Positions 815 to 10,226 of a stretch of 64,000 bases of DNA are shown here, piece after piece (the first letter of the stretch is position 1; each line of letters begins with the position of its first letter). Position numbers and translations under genes: made by a program. Below the pieces are notes generated by a model. The model did not search any database. It saw nothing but the letters and a program-made list of their open reading frames with translations, and was not told the origin of the DNA. Source of the stretch: Escherichia coli (GTDB lineage: Bacteria; Pseudomonadota; Gammaproteobacteria; Enterobacterales; Enterobacteriaceae); NCBI RefSeq assembly GCF_003334785.1, contig NZ_QOWV01000007.1; one strand, given 5' to 3'.

Positions 815-2212
815 ATTTTTACCCGAGTCGCTAATTTTTGCCGCAAGGTGCTAAGCCGCGAGGAAAGCGAGGCTGAACAGGCAGTCGCCCGTCCACAGGT
901 GACGGTGATCCCGCGTGAGCAGCATGCTATTTCCCGCAAAGATATCAGTGAAAATGCCCTGAAGGTAATGTACAGGCTCAATAAAGCGGGATACGAAGCC
1001 TGGCTGGTTGGCGGCGGCGTGCGCGACCTGTTACTTGGCAAAAAGCCGAAAGATTTTGACGTAACCACTAACGCCACGCCTGAGCAGGTGCGCAAACTGT
1101 TCCGTAACTGCCGCCTGGTGGGTCGCCGTTTCCGTCTGGCTCATGTAATGTTTGGCCCGGAGATTATCGAAGTTGCGACCTTCCGTGGACACCACGAAGG
1201 TAACGTCAGCGACCGCACGACCTCCCAACGCGGGCAAAACGGCATGTTGCTGCGCGACAACATTTTCGGCTCCATCGAAGAAGACGCCCAGCGCCGCGAT
1301 TTCACTATCAACAGCCTGTATTACAGCGTAGCGGATTTTACCGTCCGTGATTACGTTGGCGGCATGAAGGATCTGAAGGACGGCGTTATCCGTCTGATTG
1401 GTAACCCGGAAACGCGCTACCGTGAAGATCCGGTACGTATGCTGCGCGCGGTACGTTTTGCCGCCAAATTGGGTATGCGCATCAGCCCGGAAACCGCAGA
1501 ACCGATCCCTCGCCTCGCTACCCTGCTGAACGATATCCCACCGGCACGCCTGTTTGAAGAATCGCTTAAACTGCTACAAGCGGGCTACGGTTACGAAACC
1601 TATAAGCTGTTGTGTGAATATCATCTGTTCCAGCCGCTGTTCCCGACCATTACCCGCTACTTCACGGAAAATGGCGACAGCCCGATGGAGCGGATCATTG
1701 AACAGGTGCTGAAGAATACCGATACGCGTATCCATAACGATATGCGCGTGAACCCGGCGTTCCTGTTTGCCGCCATGTTCTGGTACCCACTGCTGGAGAC
1801 GGCACAGAAGATCGCCCAGGAAAGCGGCCTGACCTATCACGACGCTTTCGCGCTGGCGATGAACGACGTGCTGGACGAAGCCTGCCGTTCACTGGCAATC
1901 CCGAAACGTCTGACGACATTAACCCGCGATATCTGGCAGTTGCAGTTGCGTATGTCCCGTCGTCAGGGTAAACGCGCATGGAAACTGCTGGAGCATCCTA
2001 AGTTCCGTGCGGCTTATGACCTGTTGGCCTTGCGAGCTGAAGTTGAGCGTAACGCTGAACTGCAGCGTCTGGTGAAATGGTGGGGTGAGTTCCAGGTTTC
2101 CGCGCCACCAGACCAAAAAGGGATGCTCAACGAGCTGGATGAAGAACCGTCACCGCGTCGTCGTACTCGTCGTCCACGCAAACGCGCACCACGTCGTGAG
2201 GGTACCGCATGA
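815..2212 (+). CDS. pcnB: Poly(A) polymerase I
   Basis: ORF track 794..2212 starts at a TTG; the known protein N-terminus [12 protein letters not shown] corresponds to an AUU codon at 815..817. Nucleotidyltransferase motif [10 protein letters not shown]...DFD present. Confidence 0.9.
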
Positions 2213-2688
2213 CAGTGGCGTATATTGCCATAGGCAGCAATCTGGCCTCTCCGCTGGAGCAGGTCAATGCTGCCCTGAAAGCATTAGGCGATATCCCTGA
2301 AAGCCACATTCTTACCGTTTCTTCGTTTTACCGCACCCCACCGCTGGGGCCGCAAGATCAACCCGATTACTTAAACGCAGCCGTGGCGCTGGAAACCTCT
2401 CTTGCACCTGAAGAGCTACTCAATCACACACAGCGTATTGAATTGCAGCAAGGTCGCGTCCGCAAAGCTGAACGCTGGGGACCACGCACGCTGGATCTCG
2501 ACATCATGCTGTTTGGTAATGAAGTGATAAATACTGAACGCCTGACCGTTCCGCACTACGATATGAAGAATCGTGGATTTATGCTGTGGCCGCTGTTTGA
2601 AATCGCGCCGGAGTTGGTGTTTCCTGATGGGGAGATGTTGCGTCAAATCTTACATACAAGAGCATTTGACAAATTAAACAAATGGTAA
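2209..2688 (+). CDS. folK: 6-hydroxymethyl-7,8-dihydropterin pyrophosphokinase (HPPK)
   Basis: 159-aa ORF, full-length match to HPPK; start overlaps pcnB stop by 4 nt (ATGA). Confidence 0.95.
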
Positions 2689-2690
2689 TT

Positions 2691-2713
2691 TATTTATATT
2701 GCGAATATAAATA
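2691..2713. promoter_or_regulatory. Perfect AT-rich palindrome (10-bp arms, 3-bp centre) just downstream of folK stop
   Basis: tatttatatt-gcg-aatataaata read directly; left arm is the exact reverse complement of the right arm. Confidence 0.4.
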
Positions 2714-2852
2714 TTTTCTGAAAATCATATCTCATCTCTTTCCTTAATTACGATTTTAGTTTAAACATCTCTTTGCGGAAATAATATAACTTCCTATAAA
2801 TAAATATCAATCCCATCTCCATACCCTAACCAATTGCACTTGTGAACTTATT

Positions 2853-2877
2853 TTTACTTAATTTTGAATTAAGTAAA
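2853..2877. promoter_or_regulatory. Perfect AT-rich palindrome (11-bp arms, 3-bp centre) in yadN upstream region
   Basis: tttacttaatt-ttg-aattaagtaaa read directly; lies about 180 bp upstream of the yadN start in a 369-bp AT-rich intergenic region. Confidence 0.4.
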
Positions 2878-3057
2878 TTTAATTTGTTCAAAAGCTTCTA
2901 AAGTGCACAATAGGCGACCTAATGAACAATGGTTGTAAATTTGGGTAACAAATATCATTGCTCATTAATATCTAACATTTGTTTCTCCTATTTGTGTCAT
3001 GAATAGTCATTCTTCAAACATGTAGTCTGACTAATGGAATTTTATTAAAGGATTTTT

Positions 3058-3642
3058 ATGTCTAAAAAATTAGGTTTTGCCCTGTCTGGTCTTATGCTGG
3101 CGATGGTTGCAGGTACTGCTTCTGCTGATATGGACGGCGGTCAGTTAAATATCAGTGGTCTGGTTGTTGATAACACCTGTGAAACCCGCGTTGACGGCGG
3201 TAACAAGGATGGTCTGATCCTGCTGCAAACCGCAACCGTTGGTGAAATCGATGCTGGCGTACTGAATGACACCGTTGGCGCTAAAGCTAAACCTTTCAGC
3301 ATCACCGTTGACTGCAGCAAAGCAAATCCGAATCCAGGTAGCACGGCTAAAATGACCTTCGGTTCTGTTTTCTTTGGTAACAGCAAAGGGACTTTGAACA
3401 ACGACATGTCTATTAACAACCCATCTGACGGCGTTAATATCGCTCTACACAATATTGATGGTTCCACTATCAAACAGGTTCAAATTAACAACCCTGGCGA
3501 TGTGTATACTAAAGCCCTGGATGCAACGACAAAATCTGCTGTTTATGATTTTAAAGCGTCTTACGTTCGTGCCGTCGCAGACCAAACAGCAACTGCTGGT
3601 TATGTAAAAACTAACACTGCATACACCATTACTTATCAGTAA
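3058..3642 (+). CDS. yadN: Fimbrial major subunit (chaperone-usher pilin)
   Basis: 194 aa with signal peptide, conserved Cys pair and C-terminal donor-strand-type tail TAYTITYQ; first gene of a chaperone-usher operon. Confidence 0.9.
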
Positions 3643-3739
3643 GTATTCACCAGTTAAATTGATTGAATGAATATACAGGGAATAATAATTTCTATTTTAT
3701 ATTATTCCCTGTTTTAATTAACTCTATCAGGGATGGTTT

Positions 3740-4480
3740 ATGTTTTTTAACACCAAACATACAACAGCTTTATGCTTCGTAACCTGTATGGCTTTTAGTT
3801 CATCGTCTATTGCGGACATTGTCATTTCGGGTACTCGCGTAATATATAAAAGCGATCAAAAAAGTGTCAACGTACGTCTGGAAAATAAAGGGAATAACCC
3901 GTTGCTTGTCCAGAGTTGGTTAGATACTGGCGATGACAACGCTGAGCCTGGCAGTATTACAGTCCCTTTTACTGCTACGCCGCCAGTATCGCGTATTGAT
4001 GCCAAACGTGGGCAAACAATCAAATTAATGTACACAGCCAGCACCTCACTGCCTAAAGACAGAGAGAGCGTGTTCTGGTTTAACGTACTGGAAGTTCCAC
4101 CAAAACCAGATGCAGAAAAGGTCGCGAATCAAAGCCTGCTGCAACTGGCATTTCGCACACGTATAAAACTTTTCTATCGCCCGGATGGATTGAAGGGAAA
4201 TCCCTCTGAAGCCCCGTTAGCCCTGAAGTGGTTCTGGTCAGGTTCAGAAGGTAAGGCGTCATTACGAGTGACCAATCCAACCCCTTACTACGTCTCTTTT
4301 AGCAGTGGTGATTTAGAAGCTAGCGGTAAACGCTATCCGATTGATGTGAAAATGATTGCACCATTTAGTGATGAGGTCATGAAAGTCAATGGCCTTAATG
4401 GCAAAGCGAATTCTGCAAAAGTGCATTTTTACGCCATTAATGACTTTGGTGGCGCAATTGAAGGTAATGCCAGGCTGTAA
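3740..4480 (+). CDS. yadV: Periplasmic fimbrial chaperone (PapD-like)
   Basis: 246 aa with signal peptide and PapD-family chaperone fold; sits between pilin and usher genes. Confidence 0.9.
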   Translation: MFFNTKHTTALCFVTCMAFSSSSIADIVISGTRVIYKSDQKSVNVRLENKGNNPLLVQSWLDTGDDNAEPGSITVPFTATPPVSRIDAKRGQTIKLMYTASTSLPKDRESVFWFNVLEVPPKPDAEKVANQSLLQLAFRTRIKLFYRPDGLKGNPSEAPLALKWFWSGSEGKASLRVTNPTPYYVSFSSGDLEASGKRYPIDVKMIAPFSDEVMKVNGLNGKANSAKVHFYAINDFGGAIEGNARL

Positions 4481-4514
4481 TCAGGCAAGGATATAATTCC
4501 GCAGGAAGCATAGC

Positions 4515-7112
4515 GTGACTATAGAATATACTAAAAATTATCATCATCTGACCCGTATCGCCACGTTTTGCGCGCTGCTGTATTGCAATACTGCTTTCAG
4601 TGCTGAACTCGTTGAATATGACCATACCTTCCTGATGGGGCAGAATGCATCTAATATTGATCTCAGCCGGTACAGTGAAGGTAACCCCGCTATACCGGGT
4701 GTTTACGACGTCAGTGTTTATGTAAACGACCAACCAATCATTAACCAAAGTATTACATTTGTCGCAATTGAAGGAAAAAAGAACGCCCAGGCTTGTATCA
4801 CATTAAAGAATTTATTGCAGTTTCATATTAATTCTCCCGATATAAATAACGAAAAAGCCGTTCTGCTTGCCAGGGATGAAACGCTCGGCAATTGCCTCAA
4901 TTTGACGGAAATTATCCCTCAGGCTTCTGTTCGTTATGACGTTAACGATCAACGTCTGGATATAGACGTTCCTCAAGCCTGGGTAATGAAAAATTACCAA
5001 AACTATGTTGATCCATCGTTATGGGAAAACGGCATTAATGCGGCCATGTTGTCATACAACCTCAACGGATATCATAGTGAAACCCCTGGTCGAAAAAATG
5101 AAAGCATTTATGCTGCATTTAACGGTGGGATGAATTTAGGTGCATGGCGACTGCGTGCCTCGGGCAACTACAACTGGATGACCGATTCTGGCAGTAATTA
5201 TGATTTTAAGAATCGGTATGTTCAGCGTGATATCGCCTCGCTGCGTTCTCAACTCATTCTTGGTGAGTCTTATACGACGGGCGAAACCTTTGATTCCGTC
5301 AGTATCCGAGGCATTCGTTTATACAGTGACAGCCGCATGTTGCCTCCGACTTTAGCCAGCTTTGCGCCTATCATTCATGGCGTTGCCAATACCAACGCCA
5401 AAGTCACTATTACGCAAGGTGGCTATAAGATTTATGAAACGACGGTGCCGCCAGGCGCTTTCGTCATTGATGATCTGAGTCCGTCAGGGTACGGCAGCGA
5501 TCTTATTGTTACCATCGAAGAATCCGATGGCTCAAAGCGGACATTCTCGCAACCTTTCTCATCCGTTGTTCAAATGTTACGCCCTGGCGTTGGACGTTGG
5601 GATATTAGCGGCGGTCAGGTCTTAAAAGATGATATTCAGGATGAGCCTAATTTATTTCAAGCAAGCTACTACTACGGCCTGAATAACTATCTGACGGGTT
5701 ATACCGGTATTCAGATAACCGATAATAACTATACCGCTGGTTTGTTAGGTCTTGGTCTGAATACTTCAGTTGGTGCATTTTCTTTCGATGTGACTCATTC
5801 CAATGTTCGTATCCCGGATGATAAAACATACCAGGGGCAAAGTTATCGTGTTTCCTGGAACAAGTTATTCGAAGAAACAAGTACTTCACTGAATATCGCG
5901 GCCTATCGCTATTCGACACAGAATTACCTTGGTCTTAATGATGCACTAACTCTAATTGATGAAGTGAAACATCCCGAACAAGATCTTGAACCGAAATCCA
6001 TGCGTAATTACTCACGCATGAAAAATCAGGTTACGGTCAGTATTAACCAACCGTTGAAATTTGAGAAAAAAGATTACGGTTCATTTTATCTTTCCGGAAG
6101 TTGGTCCGATTACTGGGCTTCCGGACAAAATCGTAGCAATTACTCTATTGGCTACAGTAACAGTACATCCTGGGGCAGCTACAGTGTCAGTGCCCAGCGT
6201 TCATGGAATGAAGACGGCGACACTGACGATAGCGTTTATCTTAGTTTCACCATTCCAATTGAAAAATTACTTGGCACTGAACAACGTACTTCAGGTTTCC
6301 AGAGTATTGATACTCAAATAAGCAGTGACTTTAAGGGTAATAACCAACTCAACGTTAGCAGCAGTGGCTATAGCGATAACGCTCGCGTCAGTTATAGCGT
6401 GAATACTGGCTATACGATGAATAAAGCCAGCAAAGATTTGAGTTATGTTGGGGGTTATGCCAGCTATGAGTCACCATGGGGAACGCTGGCAGGTTCAATT
6501 TCTGCAAATAGCGATAACAGCCGTCAAGTTTCTCTCAGCACCGACGGTGGTTTTGTATTGCATAGCGGTGGACTGACTTTCAGTAATGATAGTTTTAGCG
6601 ACTCCGATACACTGGCGGTAGTTCAGGCTCCAGGTGCTCAAGGAGCGCGAATAAATTATGGCAACAGTACTATCGATCGATGGGGTTATGGTGTCACCAG
6701 CGCTCTTTCTCCTTATCATGAAAACCGTATCGCGCTGGATATCAACGATCTTGAGAACGATGTTGAATTAAAAAGTACCAGTGCAGTAGCTGTACCGCGT
6801 CAGGGTTCAGTCGTCTTTGCTGATTTTGAAACCGTGCAAGGGCAATCAGCCATTATGAACATCACACGAAGTGATGGTAAAAATATTCCATTTGCTGCAG
6901 ATATTTATGATGAGCAAGGCAATGTCATTGGTAATGTTGGACAGGGTGGACAAGCATTTGTTCGTGGTATTGAGCAGCAGGGAAATATCAGCATTAAATG
7001 GCTCGAACAAAGTAAACCCGTAAGTTGTCTTGCGCATTATCAACAAAGCCCAGAAGCAGAAAAAATAGCACAATCTATTATTCTGAATGGAATTCGGTGT
7101 CAGATTCAGTAA
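4515..7112 (+). CDS. htrE: Outer-membrane fimbrial usher
   Basis: 865-aa ORF with apparent GTG start; usher-family length and composition. Confidence 0.9.
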   Translation: MTIEYTKNYHHLTRIATFCALLYCNTAFSAELVEYDHTFLMGQNASNIDLSRYSEGNPAIPGVYDVSVYVNDQPIINQSITFVAIEGKKNAQACITLKNLLQFHINSPDINNEKAVLLARDETLGNCLNLTEIIPQASVRYDVNDQRLDIDVPQAWVMKNYQNYVDPSLWENGINAAMLSYNLNGYHSETPGRKNESIYAAFNGGMNLGAWRLRASGNYNWMTDSGSNYDFKNRYVQRDIASLRSQLILGESYTTGETFDSVSIRGIRLYSDSRMLPPTLASFAPIIHGVANTNAKVTITQGGYKIYETTVPPGAFVIDDLSPSGYGSDLIVTIEESDGSKRTFSQPFSSVVQMLRPGVGRWDISGGQVLKDDIQDEPNLFQASYYYGLNNYLTGYTGIQITDNNYTAGLLGLGLNTSVGAFSFDVTHSNVRIPDDKTYQGQSYRVSWNKLFEETSTSLNIAAYRYSTQNYLGLNDALTLIDEVKHPEQDLEPKSMRNYSRMKNQVTVSINQPLKFEKKDYGSFYLSGSWSDYWASGQNRSNYSIGYSNSTSWGSYSVSAQRSWNEDGDTDDSVYLSFTIPIEKLLGTEQRTSGFQSIDTQISSDFKGNNQLNVSSSGYSDNARVSYSVNTGYTMNKASKDLSYVGGYASYESPWGTLAGSISANSDNSRQVSLSTDGGFVLHSGGLTFSNDSFSDSDTLAVVQAPGAQGARINYGNSTIDRWGYGVTSALSPYHENRIALDINDLENDVELKSTSAVAVPRQGSVVFADFETVQGQSAIMNITRSDGKNIPFAADIYDEQGNVIGNVGQGGQAFVRGIEQQGNISIKWLEQSKPVSCLAHYQQSPEAEKIAQSIILNGIRCQIQ

Positions 7113-7128
7113 CTACAAGGGACGTCAA

Positions 7129-7698
7129 ATGATAAAAACAACGCCACATAAAATAGTGATACTGATGGGAATATTATTATCACCCTCAGTATTTGCAACG
7201 GATATTAATGTAGAGTTTACAGCCACTGTCAAAGCGACAACCTGTAACATCACACTTACTGGTAATAACGTCACGAATGATGGCAATAATAACTACACAT
7301 TGAGAATCCCTAAGATGGGTCTGGATAAGATCGCGAATAAAACGACAGAATCTCAGGCTGATTTTAAACTGGTTGCCAGTGGGTGCAGCAGTGGCATCAG
7401 TTGGATTGATACCACTCTGACCGGAAATGCATCATCAAGCTCACCTAAGCTTATTATACCGCAGTCTGGTGATTCATCTTCGACGACAAGTAATATCGGT
7501 ATGGGTTTCAAAAAACGGACTACTGATGATGCCACTTTCCTTAAACCTAACAGTGCGGAAAAGATACGCTGGAGCACAGACGAGATGCAGCCCGATAAGG
7601 GTCTTGAAATGACCGTTGCGCTACGTGAAACAGATGCAGGGCAAGGCGTACCGGGGAATTTTCGTGCACTGGCGACGTTTAATTTCATCTATCAATAA
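7129..7698 (+). CDS. yadM: Fimbrial-like minor subunit
   Basis: ORF track 7087..7698 trimmed to ATG at 7129 (MIKTTPHK..., signal peptide); C-terminal TFNFIYQ pilin tail. Confidence 0.85.
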   Translation: MIKTTPHKIVILMGILLSPSVFATDINVEFTATVKATTCNITLTGNNVTNDGNNNYTLRIPKMGLDKIANKTTESQADFKLVASGCSSGISWIDTTLTGNASSSSPKLIIPQSGDSSSTTSNIGMGFKKRTTDDATFLKPNSAEKIRWSTDEMQPDKGLEMTVALRETDAGQGVPGNFRALATFNFIYQ

Positions 7699-7709
7699 GA
7701 AGGATAATT

Positions 7710-8315
7710 ATGATGACATTTAAAAATTTACGTTATGGATTATCCAGCAGTGTCGTTTTGGCTGCCTCATTGTTCAGCGTACTCTCTTATGCGGCAACAG
7801 ACAGTATTGGACTGACCGTTATTACTACTGTAGAAATGGGTACTTGTACCGCTACATTAGTAAATGACTCTGATCAGGACATTTCTGTTGTTGATTTTGG
7901 TGATGTATATATTTCTGAAATCAATGCCAAGACCAAAGTAAAAACATTCAAACTCAAATTCAAAGACTGTGCGGGTATCCCCAATAAAAAAGCGCAAATA
8001 AAATTAACCAAGCGAGCCACATGCGAGGGAACTGCTAATGACGGTGCGGGGTTTGCAAATGGTTCCACAGCCGCAGATAAAGCAAGTGCTGTCGCCGTTG
8101 AAGTCTGGAGCACTGTAACTCCGGCAACAGGGAGTGCAACACAATTTAGCTGTGTAACACCAGCATCACAAGAGGTAACAATCTCCACTGCAGCCAATGC
8201 GGTCGTTTATTATCCGATGAGTGCACGCCTGGTCGTGGAAAAAAATAAAACCGTAAACAATGTCACTGCGGGTAAGTTTTCTGCACCAGCCACATTTACA
8301 GTAACCTATAACTAA
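7710..8315 (+). CDS. yadL: Fimbrial-like minor subunit
   Basis: 201 aa, signal peptide, C-terminal TFTVTYN pilin tail. Confidence 0.85.
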   Translation: MMTFKNLRYGLSSSVVLAASLFSVLSYAATDSIGLTVITTVEMGTCTATLVNDSDQDISVVDFGDVYISEINAKTKVKTFKLKFKDCAGIPNKKAQIKLTKRATCEGTANDGAGFANGSTAADKASAVAVEVWSTVTPATGSATQFSCVTPASQEVTISTAANAVVYYPMSARLVVEKNKTVNNVTAGKFSAPATFTVTYN

Positions 8316-8341
8316 CAGACTTACAGATTCAGGAACTATAT

Positions 8342-8938
8342 ATGCATCCCACTCAACGTAAGCTGATGAAGAGAATAATTCTGTTTCTGTCATTACTGTT
8401 TTGCATCGCCTGTCCAGCCATTGCTGGACAGGATATTGACCTTGTTGCCAATGTAAAAAACAGCACCTGCAAAAGCGGAATCAGTAACCAGGGTAATATT
8501 GATCTTGGCGTCGTTGGGGTGGGATATTTTTCAGGTAATGTTACTCCTGAAAGTTATCAACCAGGTGGAAAAGAGTTCACTATCACTGTATCCGACTGTG
8601 CATTACAGGGAACTGGCGATGTGCTAAATCAGTTACATATTGATTTTAGAGCCCTTAGCGGTGTCATGGCTGCTGGCTCTAGGCAAATATTTGCTAATGA
8701 AATTTCGTCAGGAGCAAGTAATGTAGGAGTAGTTATATTTTCTACTCAGGATTCGGCGAATACATTCAATGTTCTTAATGCTTCAGGCGGATCTCGTTCC
8801 GTTTATCCAGTAATGTCGGATGACATGAATGGTTCATCCTGGAAATTTAGCACCCGAATGCAAAAAATCGATCCTGCATTGAGTGTTACATCTGGTCAAC
8901 TTATGAGCCATGTGTTAGTGGATATTTACTACGAATAA
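8342..8938 (+). CDS. yadK: Fimbrial-like minor subunit
   Basis: 198 aa, signal peptide, pilin-like C-terminus. Confidence 0.85.
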   Translation: MHPTQRKLMKRIILFLSLLFCIACPAIAGQDIDLVANVKNSTCKSGISNQGNIDLGVVGVGYFSGNVTPESYQPGGKEFTITVSDCALQGTGDVLNQLHIDFRALSGVMAAGSRQIFANEISSGASNVGVVIFSTQDSANTFNVLNASGGSRSVYPVMSDDMNGSSWKFSTRMQKIDPALSVTSGQLMSHVLVDIYYE

Positions 8939-8987
8939 CAAACAAAAACAGCGCAAACCATAACAATAAAGAAACATTGGAGTAAAA

Positions 8988-10226
8988 ATGAAGACTATCT
9001 TCAGGTACATTCTTTTTTTAGCACTGTATTCTTGTTGTAATACAGTCAGTGCATATACAAGTTTTATTGTGGGAAATAATGCAGGAGTTGATAACTATCG
9101 AGGCCCCTCCACTGCCGCACAGATGACCTTTAATTACACATCAACAGCAAGCAACTTGGTTTTTTATAAACCCACGCAGCTCGGCCCGACTGGGGTAAAA
9201 ATGTACTGGTCATACCTGGATACAGGTACCGGTGGTGGTATTCTTTACTGCAATACATCTGGCAGAGCGAATCCTGGTCCAATAACTATTGAAAATGCCA
9301 TGGTCTATTCAGGTAAAGATTATGGCGGACATAAACTATTTAATACATCTGTTCCTGGTCTGTATTACACCATGTTAATATCAAGGGTCTGGTCTGCATA
9401 CGATACAATAACTGACATTCAATCGCCAGGAATCTATATCGGAGATCCTTCCAACCAAGAATTTTTCTTTTCCGTCACAGACAGCGATCTACAAACTAAG
9501 GGTTGCAACAAAGCAGACGACTACGATAAGTTTTGGGCTATTGGTGGTATAGTACACAACATAACTGTTGAATTTTATACAGATACTAATTTCGATCCTA
9601 CACTTAATCAGCAAGTCCAGTTATCCAGTTCATCAAATTACCTTTATTCGTTTAAGGCCTACAGTCCTGGTACAAAAGTTGTAGATCACAGCAACCACAT
9701 TTATGTCAATTTCACACTGAATAATGTCAAATTAACCTTACCAACATGTTTTACCTCCATACTTACCGGGCCATCAGTCAATGGTTCAACGGTTAGAATG
9801 GGAGAATATAGCTCTGGGACAATTAAAAATGGCGCTTCACCTGTTCCCTTTGATATCTCGCTTCAGAATTGTATTCGTGTGCGTAATATTGAAACAAAAC
9901 TCGTCACTGGAAAAGTAGGTACTCAAAACACACAACTGCTTGGTAATACGCTTACTGGAAGCACTGCCGCCAAAGGCGTTGGCGTACTCATTGAAGGTTT
10001 AGCAACCAGTAAAAATCCGCTAATGACATTAAAACCTAATGATACGAATTCTGTTTATATAGATTATGAAACCGAAGATGACACCTCCGATGGGGTTTAC
10101 CCTAATCAAGGTAACGGCACATCACAGCCTCTTCATTTCCAGGCAACATTAAAGCAAGACGGGAATATTGCTATCGAACCCGGCGAATTTAAAGCCACCA
10201 GTACTTTCCAGGTAACCTATCCCTGA
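8988..10226 (+). CDS. yadC: Putative fimbrial tip adhesin (two-domain pilin-like protein)
   Basis: 412 aa, signal peptide, C-terminal TFQVTYP pilin tail with a long N-terminal extension typical of tip adhesins. Confidence 0.85.

Follow-up and report, generated by a model that had tools for sequence, protein, structure and literature searches.

A conserved dyad core and a short invariant block in the H-NS-silenced folK-yadN spacer of Escherichia coli

What does the extremely AT-rich DNA between folK and the yad fimbrial genes of Escherichia coli do, and do the two perfect palindromes in it have any function of their own? We addressed this question in a stretch of 64,000 nucleotides (hereafter, the window), in which the RefSeq annotation of the identical stretch places pcnB, folK, yadN, yadV, htrE, yadM, yadL, yadK and yadC, all on the plus strand, with yadN as the first gene of an operon in the order yadN-yadV-htrE-yadMLKC. 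The initial annotation regarded the folK-yadN spacer as the AT-rich, 369-bp control region of a cryptic yad operon silenced by H-NS, and its palindromes as dimeric regulator sites or a switch element. The first part of this description is borne out by the annotation of the two flanking genes and by the base composition, with a GC content of 26.6% in the spacer (2689-3057) versus 0.50-0.57 in the upstream housekeeping genes. As a query, the 369-bp spacer is 100% identical to MG1655-type (K-12) genomes. Yad is reportedly regulated by temperature and ArcA, as Larsonneur et al. are said to have described in 2016.

Published work identifies the spacer as the promoter region of the yad chaperone-usher fimbrial operon and shows its silencing by H-NS. 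It is catalogued as the H-NS-associated promoter island 156927_379 (yadN/folK), one of 78 such islands in K-12 (PMC3661553). In three ChIP datasets yadN is bound by H-NS, and overproduction of SlyA raises yadN expression 2.4-fold (PMC5797941). In a K-12 silencer mutant, yadN is upregulated with a logFC of 1.8, and the downstream yad genes with values of 3-4 (PMC8894471, supplement). A yadN promoter-lux fusion from strain CFT073, carrying a 205-bp fragment, is inducible by serum and repressed by H-NS, its activity being more than 100 times higher in an hns mutant; the serum induction of the yad promoter remains without H-NS and without complement (PMC13245861, 2026). The island listing, the ChIP signals and the derepression in the hns mutant confirm the H-NS-silenced reading of the initial annotation, which is correct, already published and hence not new. 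The spacer is a described case of the promoter islands of cryptic chaperone-usher operons (sfm, elf/ycb, yeh and yad), with which it shares an AT-rich spacer, the H-NS ChIP signal, derepression in hns mutants, counter-silencing by overproduced SlyA and a locus that phylogroups have lost or exchanged for another allele. In these papers, neither palindrome is mentioned.

Both palindromes were found at the coordinates given in the initial annotation, where they were described as two perfect 10-3-10 repeats; this architecture holds for palindrome 1, and the arms of palindrome 2 are 11 nucleotides long (Table 1). We estimated how often such structures arise by chance from 5000 dinucleotide-preserving shuffles of the spacer, counting perfect hairpins with loops of 0-10 nucleotides. 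At least one hairpin appeared in 1.8% of the shuffles for arms of at least 10 nucleotides and in 0.6% for arms of at least 11, and two such hairpins appeared in none of the 5000, in agreement with the earlier claim that perfect arms of this length are unlikely by chance. The whole window contains eight such hairpins; six have a G+C content of 45-72%, and palindromes 1 and 2 are the only almost purely A/T ones. Palindrome 2 is the centre of an extended imperfect palindrome, which folds as DNA with -11.8 kcal/mol (z = -6.1), a value that none of 200 shuffles attained. It occurs as a single copy per genome and is not a dispersed repeat.

Table 1. Features of the folK-yadN region (window coordinates) and forms of the palindrome 2 dyad in different allele types
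Feature	Position	Strand	Sequence or form	Basis
folK coding sequence, upstream neighbour	2209..2688	+		ORF list, RefSeq annotation of identical K-12 DNA
folK-yadN intergenic region, yad operon control region, H-NS-bound 'promoter island'	2689..3057		369 bp	base composition, literature
Palindrome 1, perfect	2691..2713	.	10-3-10, TATTTATATT-GCG-AATATAAATA	repeat search
Invariant block	2704..2724	.	AATATAAATA-WW-TTC-Y-GAAAAT	28-allele conservation
C-rich, G-poor tract on the folK/yadN sense strand	2725..2845	+		composition kept, sequence not
Extended imperfect palindrome around palindrome 2	~2839..2894	.		inverted-repeat search, folding
Palindrome 2, perfect	2853..2877	.	11-3-11, TTTACTTAATT-TTG-AATTAAGTAAA	repeat search
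Conserved block with candidate -10 (predicted)	2904..2913	+	TGCACAATAG, -10 CACAAT (2906-2911)	alignment, PWM scan
Candidate extended -10 (predicted)	2934..2942	+	TG-T-AAATTT	alignment, PWM scan
Invariant ribosome-binding region, directly 5' of the yadN ATG	3034..3057	+	ATGGAAT...AAGGATT.TT	allele alignments
yadN, major Yad fimbrial subunit	3058..3642	+		ORF list, RefSeq annotation
Dyad, BH100N type			16-9-16	shared axis
Dyad, CUVET21 type			15-5-15	shared axis
Dyad, CFT073/EC9682 type			13-9-13	shared axis
Dyad, K-12 type			11-3-11	shared axis
Dyad, B1 type			7-3-7	shared axis
Dyad, B2/ST131 types			6-7-6	shared axis

We compared the locus across strains with a 621-nt query spanning the spacer. 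Of 5426 complete E. coli genomes, 5425 match this query through its folK part, and the spacers fall into identity classes of about 100, 97, 92, 70 and about 50%, in one of which only half of the query aligns. The allele-variable segment already includes the 3'-terminal ~40-90 nt of folK, a gene whose 3' ends are not the same in the different allele classes. Genomes of the O157/O145 type carry a different fimbrial operon at the locus, the O157-type matches ending at about position 2648 of the window, and IS1-mediated deletions also occur. The yad region is, by these observations, a variable and horizontally exchanged locus. A search for YadN in the genome contigs found one E. coli locus only. 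To the first alignment of 11 alleles from complete genomes we added 38 metagenome contigs, retrieved through the invariant pattern of the ribosome-binding site, which served as a neutral anchor. This gave 30 distinct alleles in total; 28 were retained for the analysis of conservation and 13 representatives for that of pairing. The DNA upstream in contig L029 had no match in E. coli genomes. Across the 28 alleles, 22% of the columns of the spacer are invariant, and identity in the sequence around the core of palindrome 2 has fallen to about 50%.

Against this background, the two arms of palindrome 1 behave very differently. None of the ten columns of the left arm TATTTATATT is invariant in the 28 alleles, whereas all ten columns of the right arm AATATAAATA are, and the latter (2704-2713) constitutes the longest invariant run of the spacer. 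The five divergent alleles among the first 11 have each lost 4-6 of the ten base pairs, and palindrome 1 pairs only in alleles of the K-12/B1 type. The right arm opens an invariant block after the folK stop codon, in which 81% of the 21 columns are invariant versus 22% for the whole spacer. Apart from the ribosome-binding region, this block is the strongest footprint in the spacer, and its sequence is unique in the window. As judged from the alignments, palindrome 1 does not appear to be a functional palindrome, the conserved property being the block and not the palindromy. It consists of a hypervariable left arm that happens to be complementary to an invariant 21-nt block in the K-12/B1 lineage only. 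Mutation is the most likely source of this complementarity, perhaps through template switching at a quasi-palindrome. The proposal of the initial annotation that palindrome 1 is a dimeric regulator site is contradicted by a left arm whose conservation ends with the K-12/B1 lineage; the two half-sites of a palindromic operator are not both retained here.

The position of palindrome 1, which begins 3 nt past the folK stop codon and is directly followed by UUUUCU on its 3' side, raises the question of whether it ends the pcnB-folK transcript as an intrinsic, Rho-independent terminator, particularly as no further hairpin resembling a terminator lies between folK and yadN. We consider this improbable. 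The stem lacks any G-C pair, and its RNA form reaches only -4.3 kcal/mol, with 17 of 200 shuffles being as stable. A scan for terminators made no call at palindrome 1, the hairpin is missing in all divergent alleles despite the same folK context, and folds of 13 alleles have no hairpin in common. Nor is folK found in the searched 3'-end tables (Adams 2021), from which yadN is missing as well. Downstream of the invariant block lies the C-rich, G-poor tract, in which C accounts for 19-33% and G for 5-9% in all 28 alleles; the GC skew in 2701-3000 is -0.25. The composition of the tract resembles that of a rut site and may indicate Rho-dependent termination of read-through from folK. Transcription leaving folK would then be stopped by Rho within this tract and not by palindrome 1.

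Other searches of the spacer produced little. A consensus promoter and terminator scan returned no plus-strand promoter and no terminator. Its only match in the spacer, a minus-strand promoter TTGATA-N16-TATATT, is lost in divergent alleles and was discarded. Rfam covariance models compared with both strands of 2300-3500 gave no match at E <= 10. Small open reading frames in the spacer, such as a 21-codon one at 2682-2747 overlapping the folK stop codon, were rejected because indels change the reading frame between alleles.

The picture for palindrome 2 is different. Its half-sites in K-12, ACTTA (2856-2860) and TAAGT (2870-2874), are 9 bp apart, and the corresponding core ACTWA-N9-TWAGT is present in all 28 retained alleles. 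In the CFT073-type lineage the two W positions switch together, from T:A to A:T. Around this core, the alleles carry dyads of different lengths on one shared axis (Table 1), with long perfect arms in four allele classes and outer-arm sequences that differ between classes. A 50-nt query around palindrome 2, compared with the complete genomes, is identical in 1157 genomes and has three mismatches in 1695, the largest class. These three mismatches are the differences from K-12 of the B1-type allele sequenced in AR434, and two of them hit one stem pair of palindrome 2 and convert it into G.A. A perfect palindrome is not required, because the B1-type allele contains this G.A mismatch and the B2/ST131 types retain only a 6-bp perfect core. 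The strain comparison therefore divides the two palindromes: the core of palindrome 2 is kept, the left arm of palindrome 1 is not. Palindrome 1 fails the conservation test, and palindrome 2 passes it in part.

Nine core pairs of palindrome 2 are kept in all 13 representative alleles, and 72% of the cells of the alignment pair, versus at most 55% when the partner strand is slid. Five pairs change on both sides, with a mean of 5.3 among column shuffles, 409 of 500 of which reach five, and the covariation score is reached by 69 of 500 column shuffles (A/T-only columns). Since A/T columns pair by chance, the covariation cannot be told statistically from chance. With 11 of its 25 columns invariant, palindrome 2 exceeds the remaining spacer in conservation only to a moderate degree; 38 of 318 windows of 25 nt attain this level, which places the element in the top 12%.

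These numbers bear on the main rival explanation, according to which both palindromes are mutational by-products in AT-rich, low-complexity, H-NS-coated DNA and the AT-richness is the only functional property. In this view, template switching within one molecule repeatedly 'corrects' quasi-palindromes into perfect ones as the DNA is replicated. Several observations are in line with such a process: perfect versions on one axis that differ between lineages (11-3-11, 15-5-15, 13-9-13 and 16-9-16), the lack of significant covariation, a palindrome 1 that is perfect in one lineage only, and a B1-type variant that breaks palindrome 2 in the largest class without obvious consequence. Relative to K-12, the CUVET21-type allele has two neighbouring substitutions, TT to AA, through which the arms grow from 11 to 15 nucleotides, and such a clustered change fits template switching. 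Lineage-specific perfect arms on one axis and a clustered double substitution are indeed what the yad spacer shares with quasi-palindrome hotspots. A hotspot is a mutational process without function, however, and this account fails on the core of palindrome 2 and on the right arm of palindrome 1. The half-sites ACTWA and TWAGT and their spacing are kept in 28 of 28 alleles despite about 50% identity in the flanks; no invariant run of the spacer is longer than the right arm of palindrome 1, for which mutation bias alone is insufficient; and even the O157-type locus, with its different fimbrial operon, has ACTTAA-N7-TTTAGT at a similar distance from an ATGCAAATAG block. We regard the by-product explanation as somewhat unlikely, and it leaves the invariant core and the invariant block unexplained.

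Where, then, does the palindrome 2 dyad lie with respect to the promoter? The primers of the published CFT073 reporter match locus L007 of our collection exactly and delimit its positions 1462-1666, which correspond to -229 to -25 relative to the yadN start codon. Within the fragment, 15 nt from its 5' end, lies the 13-9-13 homologue of palindrome 2 (-214 to -180); the palindrome 1 region and the invariant block are outside it. Because the block at 2704..2724 is outside this functional reporter, it is dispensable on a plasmid for promoter activity, H-NS repression and serum induction. In K-12, two candidate -10 elements follow palindrome 2 at distances of about 30-85 bp. The invariant columns of the first, CACAAT, are -11A, -9A and -7T, and the block recurs as a candidate across alleles in the PWM scan. 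The second, an extended -10, reads TGTTATACT, TGTTACATT or TGTAATACT in other alleles, with the best PWM score of 8.8 in the BH100N allele, and its invariant positions T2934, G2935, T2936, A2938 and T2942 fit the pattern TGn / -11A / -7T. In alleles of the B2 type, 10 bp are deleted between palindrome 2 and the TGCACAAT block; an indel of 10 bp amounts to one helical turn, and it fits a phase-dependent role of palindrome 2 in the DNA.

The same fragment bears on whether palindrome 2 acts at the level of DNA or of RNA. As a sense-strand RNA hairpin, in a long yadN leader or in read-through from folK, it could affect termination, stability or translation. The RNA of 2845-2885 folds with -8.5 kcal/mol (z = -4.0), an extended 58-nt form with -14.3 kcal/mol, and three stem positions of the B2-type allele change to G.U-compatible pairs on the plus strand only. 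These wobble-compatible substitutions are transitions, the type most frequent under neutrality as well, and the B1 allele has the G.A mismatch in the stem; the absence of an Rfam match at E <= 10 is a further point against the hairpin. The CFT073 fragment starts only 15 nt upstream of the element and still retains regulation. It leaves no room for a promoter upstream of the palindrome 2 homologue, and therefore the element cannot be a fully transcribed hairpin in the reporter, which favours a role at the level of DNA. An RNA hairpin is, in our judgement, very unlikely. Palindrome 2 is most likely a DNA-level candidate regulator site upstream of the core promoter. We infer that it acts on double-stranded DNA, as the K-12 variant of a dyad located at the 5' boundary of the minimal promoter fragment. 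It may be the site of a symmetric protein, which could be an anti-silencer, an activator or a repressor, or alternatively a high-affinity H-NS site for nucleation or bending.

Fimbrial operons often use phase-variation switches, and the initial annotation offered a switch element as the other reading of the palindromes. Like fimS and the pap GATC/Lrp switch, the yad spacer is regulatory DNA with inverted repeats upstream of a major-subunit gene, and inverted repeats of 10-12 nt occur 96-285 nt apart within it. Both an invertible promoter of the fim type and a Dam/Lrp methylation switch of the pap type were rejected, as their defining parts are missing. The neighbours are folK and yadN, with no adjacent gene for a recombinase or a PapI/PapB-like protein. 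Unlike fimS, the yad spacer has no repeats bounding an invertible promoter and no orientation polymorphism among the genomes listed: at least 80% of the spacer lies in one place in 2946 of 3056 matching complete genomes, and each full-length match listed is a single colinear piece, with no inversion-type split among the matches listed. Unlike pap, the regulatory region contains no GATC sites, none being found in 2498-3215. Moreover, Yad is stated not to be phase-variable (PMC13245861). The probability that the palindromes form a phase-variation switch is practically negligible, and this half of the earlier suggestion has to be abandoned.

The other half, dimeric regulator sites, is partly supported for palindrome 2, which has a conserved dyad core inside a functional promoter fragment. 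Its symmetry exceeds chance, and its half-sites and their spacing are conserved, as in the operators of dimeric regulators including SlyA/RovA (MarR) and LeuO (LysR), which are likewise dyads of conserved half-sites at fixed spacing. As with such operators, it is positioned upstream of the probable core promoter. It differs from SlyA operators in lacking an exact TTA-N6-TAA, and the centres of its half-sites are about 14-17 bp apart, beyond the one helical turn that is usual for operators. We also searched the spacer for exact matches to consensus motifs of known regulators. There was no exact match to the SlyA TTA-N6-TAA, the NarL heptamer, CpxR, TyrR, CRP or IHF motifs, nor to the ATC-N9-GAT box of LysR-type regulators. 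Resemblances seen by eye to Lrp, ArcA and H-NS (TCGATAAATT) motifs are loose leads in AT-rich DNA, and we did not count them as evidence.

Our preferred explanation as a whole, namely a silenced yad promoter with palindrome 2 as a dyad DNA element and palindrome 1 as a non-functional palindrome, has in our estimate an even chance of being correct. What is new is modest: a candidate operator and a short invariant block in a mostly known region. The resulting map of the 369 bp distinguishes the constrained parts, which are the dyad core at 2856-2874, the block at 2704-2724 and the two candidate -10 elements, from palindrome 1, which as a palindrome is unconstrained. It suggests no new kind of mechanism and indicates which elements to mutate or to use as baits in pull-downs. 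Recent work links the Yad fimbriae of extraintestinal pathogenic E. coli to infections of the bloodstream and the urinary tract; their promoter responds to serum through a factor that acts in addition to H-NS, and Ellison et al. (2026) postulated a regulator that responds to serum at the yad promoter. That ACTWA-N9-TWAGT is the operator of this serum-factor regulator is an unlikely identification. If it were true, the regulator would respond to a heat-stable component of serum and oppose H-NS at the yad promoter when the bacteria infect the bloodstream, and the variants of the dyad, with perfect arms of 11-16 bp, the mismatched B1 form and the short B2 form, would tune the activation of Yad by lineage.

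The strongest footprint of the folK-yadN spacer lies directly past the folK stop codon, where a short block is almost unchanged across the 28 alleles aligned and both of its flanks have diverged. The published functional promoter fragment, from CFT073 (PMC13245861), excludes this block. The block is followed by a tract whose composition is kept in all alleles despite poor sequence conservation, with 19-33% C and 5-9% G on the sense strand. Such a composition is as expected for a candidate Rho-utilisation region, which would halt read-through from folK.

Taken together, the allele-invariant bases of the two candidate -10 elements coincide with the TG, -11A and -7T positions. The candidate hexamers are weaker in the K-12 and B1 alleles, and the BH100N allele carries TGTTATACT. 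The top consensus promoter match in the spacer is oriented toward folK and away from yadN, and the divergent alleles do not conserve it.

Features of the folK-yadN spacer and of the corresponding loci in other genomes (window coordinates unless a locus is named)
Feature	Position	Strand	Basis or remark
AATATAAATA-WW-TTC-Y-GAAAAT block	2704-2724		allele comparison; directly past folK stop codon
C-rich, G-poor tract	2725-2845	sense	base composition per allele
TTGATA-N16-TATATT promoter match	2783-2810	minus	consensus match, 10/12
Candidate -10 CACAAT	2906-2911		invariant bases across alleles
Candidate extended -10 TG-T-AAATTT	2934-2942		invariant bases across alleles
O157/O145 ACTTAA-TTTACAT-TTTAGT	L012 2686-2750; L013 2740-2810		~50 nt upstream of ATGCAAATAG
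IS1 insertions (L014, L015, L016)	equivalents of ~2740, ~2820, ~2755		

Around palindrome 2, the alignment shows that alleles of the B2/ST131 type are missing 10 bp, or one helical turn, between the palindrome and the conserved TGCACAAT block (window ~2878 to ~2900). In a metagenome contig (SKEN01001486.1; L029 1-1800), the right edge of the palindrome 2 core (…TTAAGT|GGATAT) is the exact point where identity to B2-type alleles sets in. Upstream of this junction lies unrelated AT-rich DNA with ORFs, for which no match was found among 5426 E. coli genomes. Either a chimeric assembly or DNA inserted at the palindrome could account for this junction.

The divergent cassette begins within folK, in its 3' end (window ~2600-2688; loci L009-L013). 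The final 40-90 nt of folK vary by allele class, and the O157-type folK is longer by one codon; this variation by class therefore places a recombination boundary inside a housekeeping gene. The O157/O145 genomes have another fimbrial operon downstream of folK (L012, L013), and their spacer motif together with ATGCAAATAG resembles the palindrome 2 core and the TGCACAATAG block of K-12. This likeness in sequence suggests that the two promoter architectures are distantly homologous.

Within the operon itself, the PMC8894471 supplement lists logFC values of 3.8-4.3 for yadM, yadK and yadC versus 1.8 for yadN in a silencer mutant. Because these distal genes are derepressed more than yadN, the listed values suggest H-NS-masked promoters internal to the yad operon (window 3058-10226).

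Several complete genomes carry IS1 within the spacer, and in two of them the yad operon is also mostly or wholly deleted, yadC or panB marking the far end of the deletion. With its high AT content, the spacer looks like a target for IS1 and a route to the loss of yad.
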